Position numbers and translations under genes: made by a program
DNA from: Sphyrna mokarran
Taxonomy: Eukaryota
Assembly: GCA_024679065.1 (NCBI GenBank)
Contig: JAGIQG010000016.1
Span: forward strand, 10,044,001-10,108,000
Direction of reading: 5' to 3'
DNA length: 64,000 nucleotides
In this document: in pieces, positions 1 to 64,000 of the stretch
Position numbering within the stretch: position 1 is the stretch's first letter
Layout: each line of letters begins with the position of its first letter
The notes under the pieces: generated by a model
The model's database searches: none
Told to the model about the DNA's origin: nothing
What the model saw: the letters and a program-made list of their open reading frames with translations, nothing else

Positions 1-1300
1 TGTGTCACTGTTCACTTCAACACAATATTTAATATCAAACCGAATCGAATTGAGACTTCCCCCGTCTTGTCATATGAATTAGTTATACAAATGAGATGCA
101 ACAGGGAAGCCAATGTCATTCCCTGTGGACAATGTTAATTATAAGTCTCCAGTCCGTTAAAAAAACGTGTTCCTTCACCCTACGCACGCTTTCCGCAAGT
201 CAATTTTGGACACTACTGGTTTGATATATGTGAATCCTGTGCCGTATGATAAGCCTGATCAGCCTATTATGCGTTACATTGTCGGAGACCTTGTTAATTA
301 AGTTGATGTTCCACCACACTACTGGAATTAATTTCTAAATCATCTCTTCCAAACACTTTGGTAAATTTGTAGTGTATGATTTTCCACGCACCAAGACATT
401 CTGACTGTCCTTAGTCAGCACAAACGCATCTACAAATACTTGTATTTCATGTTCTTCAGAATGGCCTCCAAAAAGGCAATCACCGCTGAAGTCAGGCTCT
501 CAAATTAGCATTTTCGTGCCTTTAGCTTGCACTTCTGTGAATAATGCCACAACGTGCGCTTCCCTCCCATCTTCCGGCATGTCAACCGTGCTTCTAAATG
601 ATAGAAATTCCACAGCGAGGTGTGCCATATTTTCCTCATCTTCCCACAATGTCCTTAAGTATTGGTCTTGATTGAAGCTCAGGATTTATCTACGTTTATA
701 CACGTGATATATCTGCGTTTATCAATTTTGTCCAGAGAAAGTATCTATTTTTTTGCGAGTTTTGAATTCCAGCGTCTCGTTTTTTTTTCAATAATGTGGA
801 CGGTTTTTTTTCAACACACCTCTCTGTACTTCTGCAAGAAATGCTTCATGCATTTTTTGTCATCATGATGACAAGTATTCACTGAGGATGTAAATCATCT
901 GTTGCAGCCCCACGCAACGGCGAACTGGCTGGGATGGATGGTTCACAATCATTTCCCTCGTAACACTTTTGCACCACCTATACTTGGGATTGTTTTGGGA
1001 TTTCCTTCCCCGTCACTGCCAAAGCTCGGTCATGTACCATACTTGCTCTTCTGATTTCCCAGTCAATTGTGCTACGACACCAGCAATTTATTTCAAGGGA
1101 TTTCCTTGATCCAATACGCCTATGCCGGCAGTTCTTAGTTTTATTGACCAAATTCTTAATACTGCTTGTCATCCTGCGTTCCCTGCGCTTTCAGTTTTCC
1201 AATTCACTCTACCCAGAACTTTGCTGGCTCTGAAATATCGTTATCTCCTTTTTGAGTCTCTACAATTACAGGATAATCATCTACGAGTGAAAATCTCCCA
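1..1300 (-). mobile_element. Old CR1-clade LINE ORF2 fragment (continues across unit junction)
   Basis: MTSSIKNLVNKTK..GSRKSLE..CRSTIDWEIRRA..ALAVTGKEIPK resembles CR1 ORF2 'MTRDIEALVKKKK..SLEEY..LKREIRRAKRGHE.ALA..KENPK'; degenerate. Confidence 0.8.
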
Positions 1301-1842
1301 CAATTAAGTATTGAAAGCGCATTTCTCTTCACAAACAAAAGGGACTGAACCAAATTAGATATCTAATCGGTGGACCTGATCTATTGTTTTCCACAATTCG
1401 TTCACCGTGATAATTGTGTTCTCTAGTCACAAAGTGTCATATAATTGGCACTTCTGCTGTTGGTCATGGCTTATTTCCCAAAAAGACTTGGAATTTATTC
1501 CTTCAATTAACATTGATTGTGTGTTTTTTTTTCGTGAACATCCATCACTGTTTCGTCCCCAGGCAATCTCTTAAAACTATGGAAGTCCCAGTTTCAGTCA
1601 TTCAAGATAAAAATCACTGCGATCAAACCATTATTTTTAATACAGTTGTCTTCGACCTCCCAGCATATTTATTCTTCTTGAAAGTTTATACGTGTTTAGT
1701 TATTAGTGTCACTCGTAGATTACACTAACACCGCTATGAAATTACTGCAAAAATCATCACTTGCCACACTCGAGCGCCTGACCAAATTCGACCTCTCCGT
1801 TGAGTGCGGAGAAAGGGGTGTCGGGCGATTGTTGGTGGAAAG

Positions 1843-1872
1843 TGGGGGCGTGTCATGCAACCATCCAATCAA
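1843..1872 (+). promoter_or_regulatory. GC-box (gggggcgtgtc) plus CCAAT (ccaatca) in a locally CpG-rich patch
   Basis: Motif match only; lies inside EFCAB6-derived sequence. Confidence 0.2.
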
Positions 1873-60588: not shown

Positions 60589-63500
60589 GTTTGGCTTATT
60601 TCCCAAAAAGACTTGGAATTTATTCCTTCAATTAACATTGATTGTGTGTTTTTTTTTTCGTGAACATCCATCACTGATTCGTCCCCAGGCAATCTCTTAA
60701 TACTATGGAAGTCCCAGTTTCAGTCATTCAAGATAAAACTCACTGCGATCAAACCAATATTTTTAATACAGTTGTCTTCGACCTCCCAGCATATTTATTC
60801 TTCTTGAAAGTTTATACGTGTTTAGTTATTAGTGTCACTCGTAGATTACACTAACACCGCTATGAAATTACTGCAAAAATCATCACTTGCCACACTCGAG
60901 CGCCTGACCAAATTCGATCTCTCCGTTGATTACGGAGAAAGGGGTGTCGGGCGATTGTTGGTGGAAAGTGGGGGCGTTGTCATGCAACCATCCAATCAAG
61001 GTATTGAGTCCTTTCTTATATTTCAGTTACACACATGTGGTCTACTTAGACGATGCCTCAGTCATATTTTTTCTCTGTACTGCCGGTGATATTTGCCACA
61101 GCCAACACCGCAACTCTCCTTTCTCTCGTGTCTCTCCTTGAATCGTTTTGATAACTTATCCAAAACGAACATGGCACTTTCAGTCCCATACTCTCTTAGC
61201 CAGTTTTTTGAAAAGAGCTGTTATATGTCAATCATATATATATATGCATTCATGTTCTCAATTATTCTGCCTTACCTGTCCGTTAATTTGCTCTGAAATA
61301 AATGTAGTTTCATTCATCAGTCTTCCCCACTTCCTCAACAAGCTCATGTCTGTCCTGTCCTTTGAAAATTTTCACTTTATGGTCCAAAATGTGAATACTT
61401 CATGGTAAGGATTCAGATTGTTGCTTCAAGCTGACCATACATGAACTCCACGCAAATTCAATGTATCTCTGTATATTTACTTCAACATGCCTTTGCAGAT
61501 ACCCCGGCTAATATGAGTTTTAATTGTGACTGTCACTTTTTTCAATATGTTATCAATGAAAAAATGTGCAAACTGCTCATTGGAGATTGTTTATCATTCT
61601 TAGAACTGAAAGTAGTCAAAGATGGTAAAGAGAAAAAATAACATTCTTCTATCTATGTTGTAAGTTATTCATTATTGATCGATTTCAGAGAGGTATTTGT
61701 TAAAAACGAATAAACGTGTATTTATTTAATTATTGTGTCCACAATGATCCACGCAAGATAGTCCGGCAATTGGATCACAACTCGAATTTGCATTCTGTCT
61801 TCATGATTGTCGAAAGGCTAACCATTGTCTGTGAAAATCGACCTTAATTTCAACGAGAGAACGAACGTGTAATAAAAGGAATAATGTGAATCTCCTTTTT
61901 AAATTACATTGGGTACAGCAGATAAATTGCGTTGCAAGCAGAACATAATAGTCCTATTCAGCAAGGCATGCAAACTGAAACATTTTGGAATAAAATATAA
62001 AGTGTAAAGAAGATAGTGGAGTTAAATTGAAAAAAACATGTGTAATCTTCCGAAATTGTCGAAGGGAAAACAACATCCGGCATTAGATACAGGGCAAAGA
62101 GGAGAAGTACAGGCATATGGTTGCTTCAAATGAAACGCCTAGTAACAGGGACACTTTTGGGCAGTCAGTAAGGATATGCAAATAACACATACGCATTCTT
62201 CAACCGCATAAACAAATAGACAACCAGCATATTAAATGCAGGCATATGTTGAGAAGGATAGATAGAGAAATGCATAAGAAGTGTACACCTGTTGCATGAG
62301 TAATTATACTCACGTAATACGAAATAAATTTGCCAAGTGACGGTGATTTTATTTTCTTTCCGAGAAATTAAATTTGCAAACATATCAATGGAAGGCATAA
62401 TAGCATACTTGATAGAACATGTTGAAAGATGATAAATAAGAAATATCGTATTATTTTGCAGTATTCATCAAAGAAAGACAGGGATTAAGCGGTTGGCTTC
62501 CAACATGAGATTTAGTGTTTCCTTAGAATTGTTGCCAAGTTCGAAATGAAAGTGAAGATACGGAAATTGTTCTTAAAACAATTGCACATCATCATCAAAT
62601 GTGAAATGTTATTGATTACGATAATAAGGGAATAGGAAAAGCAAAGTGTCTTGTCAAGGATGGCTTTTAAATTTATAGTTTCATTTCGGGATGATGGAAC
62701 TACCTTGCTAAGACAACATTTGATTTGCCTTCAGTAGAAGGAAAGTCAGTTGGTGAATTACTTTGATTGATATAGAAACAGCAATATATGATTCACTGCC
62801 AACCCGAAACCGGCGATCGAACAAAAATTCATGCACATATTTTGAGAAACAAGCGAAACAACCCGATATTATGAATGATTACATTTTGATTCATAAGGAT
62901 TATTAAGTTGGTTATGCGTTCATTCGTTGAGTAATGCTGCCTTAAATGGACCCTGGGCTGTTTGGAAAANNNNNNNNNNNNNNNNNNNNNNNNNNNNNNN
63001 NNNNNNNNNNNNNNNNNNNNNNNNNNNNNNNNNNNNNNNNNNNNNNNNNNNNNNNNNNNNNNNNNNNNNNNNNNNNNNNNNNNNNNNNNNNNNNNNNNNN
63101 NNNNNNNNNNCCTTACCTTTTCCAAGATGTCACTTAATCCTCGCACTTCAAGTTGTTCCTGTTGATGGATTGAACATGCTCAGTGCATGGTGTCAGGGTA
63201 GTCTGTAGAGTGTAGTTGTTTGAGATTATTTGTATAGGGCCGATGTGAACAAATGATAATGTCCAGAGGACAAAGACAATACCAGCTCAGGAACAGGCAG
63301 GTCGACCTTCCAAGTCCGCAACGACATGGGGCTGGACTGAAGTAAAACTCCCTACCGTTCCAGGGACATTATCCCTTCATTCCCACCTATCCAACTACTT
63401 GTCAAGACACGTCTTAAAATTCACTGTCGTGCTCCATCCTCTACGTCCTCCATCAGCACGTTCCAGGCATCATTTGTGGAAAAAAAAACTGTCTCTGTAC

Positions 63501-64000
63501 ATTTTCTTGAAAACTTGCAACTGACATAAAAATCTATGCCCAGAGTAACTGATTCCTGCCCCCGGGAAGACTCTTCTGTCCATTCACTATGTCCATGTTG
63601 CTCAAAATCTTGTAGACCTCTGTGGTTCCAATGAGAATAAACAAAGTTCCCCCTGCCTTATACTCGTAATCGTTGCAACCGAAATGGCTTTCCTCATCTT
63701 GTGTTGTGATATGCAACACGTTAATCAAATTGACAAATAATGCGGCTTATTTAAAAGAAAAAGGTTAATTTGCGTGTCTTGCGTGCTGTTTACCCGTTGC
63801 ACACTTTGCGAAGAAGTCAGCATACCATAAATCATAACATGATTTCAAAAATGGTGCCTTTCATATTACACCCAAATGGTCTCGCACATTGTCTCGATAA
63901 AATGCTATCCTCTCCAAGCTCAGAGAATTCATAAAAAACGTATTTCGTTGTTGTCGTTCGTGGGTAGAACTCGGTTGCCCAAATGTGTCTCAAGACGACC
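60589..64000. repeat. Tandem repeat unit 7 (short type, starts at unit position ~1462, runs off window)
   Basis: Begins 'gtttggcttatttcccaaaaagac'; has the short-type deletion junction at ~61383. Confidence 0.92.

Follow-up and report, generated by a model that had tools for sequence, protein, structure and literature searches.

What kind of repeat fills this 64,000-nucleotide stretch of Sphyrna mokarran DNA (the window), what do its units carry, and does that cargo still do anything? Self-BLAST covers the whole window with collinear direct repeats of up to 17 kb at ca. 96% identity, revealing a head-to-tail array of units 10.5 to 13 kb long, about 97% alike and with a GC content of 38%. An anchor 30-mer occurs six times (5321, 17206, 27785, 39653, 50143, and 63120); its spacing gives five whole units of 11885, 10579, 11868, 10490, and 12977 bp, with a partial unit at each end. 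About 5.5 unit lengths are present, and the array continues past both ends of the window. With 95.5 to 99% identity among five whole and two partial multi-kilobase copies in direct orientation, this is a macrosatellite; the original prediction of at least 7 tandem units was right about the array, although seven is reached only by counting both partial ends. The units fall into a long and a short type. The long type comprises the partial U0 (1..5320; 98.7% identical to 11877-17051), U1 (5321..17205; 11885 bp by anchor spacing), which is our reference for the coordinates of all sub-parts, and U3 (27785..39652; 11868 bp, 96.3% identical to U1). The short units U2 (17206..27784; 10579 bp), which lacks U1 14138-15463, and U4 (39653..50142; 10490 bp) have the same deletion junction. 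U5 (50143..63119; 12977 bp) is a recombinant that follows the long type until U1 15514, steps back to U1 13335, and then continues as the short type, while the partial U6 (63120..64000) is 93.3% identical to U1 5321-6200. Each unit also holds one (GAA)n microsatellite (7399..7469, minus strand), and a (TG)n microsatellite (17069..17174, plus strand) marks the unit boundary. An internal direct duplication at 14832..15558, with a period of 419 bp and copies 88 to 90% alike, is older than the array copies.

Gap-free pairwise divergence between units ranges from 0.8 to 4.6% and varies by segment: U0, U1, and U3 are mutually 0.8 to 1.0% apart in 14310-15040, and elsewhere U3 differs from U0 and U1 by 2.8 to 3.6%. 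These segment-wise shifts in unit relationships, together with the long/short recombinant U5, indicate that unequal crossing-over, acting without selection, likely amplified the array and turned it over. They do not form a regular long-short higher-order repeat, since identity at a lag of 22.4 kb (96.4%) is not above that at other lags. It is scarcely credible that the assembly simply wrote out one or two copies several times. The letter N at 3 of 11 microsatellite positions would fit such an error, as would the low ratio of transitions to transversions among private differences (280/335), which noisy reads can produce; but the copies are 1 to 4.5% apart, share deletions, and include one with a private insertion flanked by a target-site duplication. 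One DNA sequencing run (X1), possibly of the source sample, moreover yields many variant contigs with an equally low ratio (411/538). It covers all 30 bins, and contains a joint of 14132 to 15046 that matches the short-type deletion. Its summed depth, which is not a copy number, is 170 to 499 in 15 of 15 non-LINE bins, as against 7 to 37 for the single contigs listed.

LINEs, which the original reading did not mention, account for about 4.6 kb of every unit, in the form of two opposed fragments. An ORF2 (reverse transcriptase) fragment on the plus strand (9626..10890) matches Pfam RVT_1 with an E-value of 5e-6 and 26.8 bits, below the gathering threshold of 29.6, and X1 depth over it is 2100 to 45000 compared with 170 to 500 outside the LINEs. 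The older ORF2 fragment, on the minus strand, occupies 11450..14200 (11765-13126 by alignment, the flanks presumably) and is purine-rich on that strand (58%). In a DNA Smith-Waterman alignment the two are 60.6% identical over 1200 columns (score 176.5 versus a maximum of 117 in 40 shuffles), though tblastn of one against the other gave no match; reverse-transcriptase homology is direct for the first and by way of this alignment for the second. We take both to be of the CR1/HER1 clade. A young LINE 3'-end of 252 bp, presumably CR1-type, is private to U5 (59123..59374, minus strand), where it lies inside the EFCAB6-like part discussed below, flanked by a TATAG duplication; BLAST matches it only once in the window. 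The same family left an old 3'-end fragment at 5466..5736 (minus strand), 63% identical over 242 columns (score 81.5 versus a maximum of 49 in 100 shuffles). At 6740..6880 (minus strand) lies a decayed SINE-like stretch that, by eye, we take to be HE1-like. It is the presumed likeness of these LINE and SINE pieces that would point to a shark or ray. Rfam and tRNA scans returned nothing, and an exact 26-mer had no match among metagenome contigs.

The remaining cargo had originally been read as a decayed EFCAB6-like gene, from about eight collinear peptide blocks on the minus strand. Comparing by eye with human EFCAB6, we recognize 14 putative blocks on that strand in EFCAB6 order: nine, one of them duplicated, in a presumed 5' part (14220..17050, with the best-looking core at 14220-15800) and five in a presumed 3' part (8100..9600, from 9572 to 8207). 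The putative blocks stop at the LINE block and resume beyond it. This reading by eye agrees with the original one and is evidence of the same, non-independent kind; every search by tool was blank. Pfam found an EF-hand family in none of 21 pieces of the EFCAB6-like parts at E-values up to 5, and none in the six whole frames at E-values up to 1, where only low-complexity chance matches appeared. The EFCAB6-like parts had no match among 1.84 billion representative proteins. A word-index protein search of them was also blank, which is weak evidence because the same search missed the Pfam-confirmed LINE control. In the PDB, where a solved bovine structure includes a model of EFCAB6 (PMC8595878), single-frame queries from these parts (one of them in a frame other than that of the putative blocks) retrieved an EF-hand protein in 0 of 10 cases; the chance matches were to Kit, synaptotagmin, TAL repeats, a lipoprotein, and a ubiquitin fusion. 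A macrosatellite with decayed, gene-like cargo stands, and the name EFCAB6 is without tool support. We consider it rather unlikely that the array is a neutral macrosatellite whose non-LINE cargo is the relic of some other gene, or non-coding DNA, into which a pattern was read. The blank searches would agree with this, as would the uneven block spacings, the pyrimidine-rich stretches, and several peptide-like blocks of the unit that are actually LINE. Set against it are the common strand and order of the 14 putative blocks, their resumption past the LINE block, and their cDNA-sized total span, along with the little weight that the word-index result carries.

Human EFCAB6 has 32 exons (PMC6625148) and a cDNA of 4817 nt (PMC5862874). 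Between its two microsatellites, a long unit holds 4551 nt of non-LINE sequence, which is cDNA-sized. With the LINEs and the duplication removed, the first to the last putative block span ~3700 nt, to be set beside a presumed ~1270 residues in the human protein, and after removal of the LINEs the blocks would be spaced at about three bases per residue, which argues for a processed retrocopy rather than a spliced gene. The spacing is uneven, with 943 nt between two blocks that we take to be ~130 residues apart, an excess of ~540 nt. Purines make up only 38 to 44% of the minus strand in 15900-16800 and 8100-8700, and these pyrimidine-rich stretches fit an intron or inserted DNA better than EF-hand mRNA. 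Also on the minus strand are an AATAAA near 7885 and the (GAA)n at 7399-7469, possibly a decayed poly(A) tail; a clear poly(A) tail or a flanking duplication was not seen. The splice sites reported earlier are not supported: on the minus strand, either EFCAB6-like part has a single strict acceptor pattern, which does not exceed what the spacer and LINE parts show. We think it quite improbable that the cargo descends from the EFCAB6 gene itself, as a compact or partly spliced genomic fragment with a few introns kept. The T-rich 15900-16800, with its excess spacing, would suit such a fragment, and a former intron could house the 4.6-kb LINE block, but 32 exons and their introns cannot fit into 4551 nt, a single strict acceptor per part is too few, and the core at 14220-15400 has no large gaps if the putative block positions hold. 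The parent of the cargo is likely the cilia gene EFCAB6, of which it would be a long-dead and probably intron-free copy; identity and intron loss both come from the comparison by eye.

Whatever its parent, the unit most likely makes no protein, since U1 has no open frame and its longest stop-to-stop stretch in any frame is 124 codons. Between copies, substitutions amount to 3.0 to 3.9% in the EFCAB6-like parts versus 2.9 to 3.5% in the LINE parts; 88% (n = 51) and 100% (n = 39) of the pairwise indels in the EFCAB6-like parts are not multiples of three, and the private LINE insertion of U5 sits within such a part. The disabled frame and neutral decay are those of a processed pseudogene, the neutrality concerning protein coding only and coming from five to six copies. 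A stop-depletion and frameshift path test found no coding trace in the unit, a test that the LINE controls also fail; its one low value (z -1.9 to -2.4, at 7480-8090 on the plus strand) is one of 16 region-strands and is of low complexity.

A sex-linked, germline-active locus, whether an amplicon, a source of lncRNA or piRNA, or a DXZ4-like chromatin element, is in our judgement improbable. A CpG observed/expected ratio of 0.73 and CpG transitions only ~1.9 times as frequent as other G/C transitions (27 events) hint at low germline methylation, and EFCAB6 is a ciliary doublet protein with a suggested role in spermatogenesis. However, the young LINE insert of U5 has a ratio of 0.83, so the CpG level of the unit may be general. 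Moreover, open frame and constraint are both absent, and the cargo is beyond recognition by any search; such heavy decay would likely make pairing with the parent mRNA poor. A sex amplicon should consist of intact, near-identical, testis-expressed copies, and we found no open frame and ~3% divergence. Very improbable, finally, is the composite picture of a near-full-length EFCAB6 retrocopy macrosatellite on a cartilaginous-fish sex chromosome, spared from CpG methylation in the germline and serving as a DXZ4-like chromatin element or a source of RNA in testis.

Among known systems, the human REXO1L1 (GOR) array, which we take to be of retrocopy origin, resembles ours in being a long head-to-tail array of ~12-kb units with gene-derived sequence inside. 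The shark cargo differs in gene and lineage; its decay has gone much further, to the point that no frame is open, LINEs interrupt it, and its copies are ~3% apart and of several structural types. For REXO1L1 at 8q21.2, the unit is ~12.2 kb and the copy number highly variable, at 108 to 266 (PMC4063668). Kilobase units and gene-derived cargo are shared with the D4Z4/DUX4, RS447/USP17, TAF11-like, and CT47 macrosatellites, of which D4Z4 contains a retrogene (PMC5687341). These have units of 3.3 to 4.8 kb and 48 to 71% GC and encode a product, whereas the shark unit, at 10.5 to 13 kb and 38% GC, encodes nothing. The CICP processed-pseudogene family spread through segmental duplication (PMC13015009); like the putative retrocopy here, it goes back to a single RNA-derived insertion later multiplied as DNA, although its copies are dispersed in segmental duplications and the shark copies are strictly tandem. 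Testis ampliconic families of the Y and X likewise are multicopy with germline-flavoured gene cargo (if ours is EFCAB6), but their copies are >99% identical and expressed (PMC6772104), and the shark copies are ~97% alike, dead, and without constraint.

On balance, and with modest confidence, we favour a tandem array of 10.5 to 13 kb units that carry decayed LINE fragments and a likely dead, probably intron-free EFCAB6 retrocopy, and that were likely amplified and turned over through unselected unequal crossing-over. If the putative blocks are right about identity and intron loss, an EFCAB6 mRNA would have been reverse-transcribed and inserted. The retrocopy would then have decayed, gained the observed 419-bp duplication, and been split by the two LINE insertions seen in every unit type, before the whole 11.9-kb block was amplified into the tandem array observed. 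The 1.3-kb deletion type, the recombinant unit, and the private LINE insertion, all of them observed, would have come afterwards. Most known macrosatellites with gene cargo come from mammals, and retrocopies are scarcer outside that group. No paper on this array was found in the largely open-access literature searched. The VGP retrocopy pipeline demands that copies of one parent be 500 kb apart (PMC13320880), so surveys of that design would miss tandem retrocopy arrays. The array is likely passenger DNA that drifts and has no function, in much the same way as macrosatellites with gene cargo already described. As interpreted here it is a modest example of genome structure, whose significance would be much greater only if it were sex-linked or transcribed in testis, and its nested history of retrocopy, LINEs, amplification, deletion, and new LINE makes it a neat clock for array turnover.

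Self-comparison resolves the entire window into a single direct tandem array, with five whole units (U1 to U5; 11885, 10579, 11868, 10490, and 12977 bp) between two partial end units, U0 and U6. Unit limits were set by an anchor adjoining a (TG)n microsatellite, seen six times in the window, and the array content amounts to about 5.5 unit lengths. The original prediction of at least seven near-identical units holds for the tandem arrangement but not for the count, which reaches seven only with both partial ends included. Gap-free divergence between copies is 0.8 to 4.6%, varying by segment. 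The macrosatellite is real and, apparently, not previously described. Three runs of N, which could be gaps or masks (5175-5307, 19273-19421, and 62970-63110), coincide with 3 of the 11 microsatellite positions of the units.

U0, U1, and U3 are of a long type, while U2 and U4 share a deletion of U1 14138-15463; U5 is of the long type as far as U1 15514, where its sequence returns to U1 13335 and carries on as a short unit to its end. The nearest-relative copy of each unit switches along its length. We infer that the shifting neighbours, shared deletion, and U5 rearrangement are the footprint of unequal crossing-over and gene conversion. An internal duplication (14832-15558; 419-bp period, 88-90% alike) predates the array copies; the deletion shared by the short units, like the rearrangement in U5, has a breakpoint in its upper copy. 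The least divergent stretch of the unit (7500-8090; 2.05%, 0.7 indels per kb) adjoins the (GAA)n microsatellite, and may reflect chance or conversion.

One public DNA sequencing run contains 54% of sampled words from the window, covers all 30 bins of 7500-17000 with numerous variant contigs, and has a joint from 14132 to 15046 that agrees with the short-type deletion. Its summed depth in the 15 bins outside the LINE block is 170-499, versus 7-37 for single contigs among those listed; because such depth gives no copy number and the run is possibly the assembly's source sample, we count these data only as agreeing with a genuine multicopy array.

Within the unit lies a plus-strand LINE ORF2 fragment (9626-10890; Pfam RVT_1, E 5e-6, under the gathering score), with very high depth in the same run. 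An opposed minus-strand copy (11765-13126) is 60.6% alike over 1200 columns (alignment score 176.5 versus a shuffle maximum of 117), and strand purine bias stretches it to about 11450-14200. The LINE pieces are putative CR1/HER1-type elements, and 6740-6880 is a putative HE1-like SINE, which would point to a shark or ray as host. HE1/HER1 are recorded in sharks and rays (PMC3747384). Private to U5 is a young LINE 3'-end insertion (59123-59374; 252 bp, short tandem tail, flanking TATAG duplication), usable as a marker to date or type units; an old relative occupies 5466-5736 (63% over 242 columns).

On the minus strand, 14 blocks, chosen after looking, appear by eye to follow the human EFCAB6 order: from IGLVRL (16945) through VVTLND (14557) and QREFET (14282) in the 5' part, and from RSMGHV (9572) to KYSCNI (8207) past the LINE block, one of the 14 being doubled by the 419-bp duplication. 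The predicted collinearity is seen by eye, but protein searches did not confirm it. No EF-hand protein appeared in 10 of 10 PDB searches, in HMMER against 1.84 billion representative proteins, or in a word-index search that also missed the Pfam-confirmed LINE, nor did Pfam searches of translated frames and pieces find the EF-hand family; all were single-frame searches of frameshifted, strongly decayed DNA. Judged by eye, EFCAB6 is the likely, if unproven, identity of the cargo. A 775-bp contig of the sequencing run (depth 17) matches two pieces of the EFCAB6-like sequence within 9237-9571 (about 87% alike), which in the contig are separated by 116 unrelated letters, and may come from a more diverged relative elsewhere in the genome.

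In cilia, EFCAB6 belongs to the inner junction of the doublets (PMC8595878); the human gene has 32 exons (PMC6625148) and a 4817-nt cDNA for 1501 residues (PMC5862874). The non-LINE sequence between the microsatellites of a long unit is 4551 nt, and the blocks span about 3700 nt for about 1270 residues. Some 30 introns cannot fit, and the strict acceptor pattern occurs once per EFCAB6-like part; the splice sites originally proposed are not supported and a spliced gene is unlikely, so the cargo, if EFCAB6, would most likely be a retrocopy broken up by LINEs. Block spacing is uneven, with about 540 nt of excess between 16749 and 15806, and the minus strand is pyrimidine-rich at 15900-16800 and 8100-8700, so that an insertion or retained intron is possible there. 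The EFCAB6-like sequence shows neither a clear poly(A) tail nor a clear duplication at its flanks.

The longest open frame in U1, over all frames, is 124 codons; copies diverge by 3.0-3.9% in the EFCAB6-like parts versus 2.9-3.5% in the LINE parts; 88-100% of pairwise indels in the former shift the frame; and the U5 insertion lies inside an EFCAB6-like part. A protein function of the cargo is excluded. CpG observed/expected is 0.73 for the whole window, and transitions between copies are fewer than transversions (280/335 in the window, 411/538 in the sequencing run); both values would be unusual for methylated vertebrate DNA. The excess of CpG transitions over the remaining G/C transitions is only about 1.9-fold. 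Reduced methylation in the germline would account for this pattern, but CpG is likewise plentiful in the young U5 insertion (observed/expected 0.83 over 252 bp). It is improbable that the array is sex-linked or RNA-producing.

We lean modestly towards a history in which retroposition would have been followed by decay, internal duplication, and LINE insertion, then by amplification in tandem and continuing unequal exchange, the cargo being under no selection throughout. A neutral array in the wider sense, including one with cargo other than EFCAB6, is highly probable. A literature search, with most subscription journals outside its reach, gave no account of EFCAB6 in sharks, a tandem EFCAB6 pseudogene, or, among the papers listed, such a shark macrosatellite. 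By term search, 'tandem' and 'satellite' are absent from the main text, as available, of an elasmobranch sex-chromosome preprint (10.1101/2025.02.26.637739). The nearest known system is the human REXO1L1 array with its 12.2-kb unit (PMC4063668), followed by the D4Z4, RS447, TAF11-like, and CT47 macrosatellites (PMC5687341); also near is a processed pseudogene that multiplied secondarily, by copying of its DNA (PMC13015009). The array adds to the gene-carrying macrosatellites already known, with a cargo that is dead.
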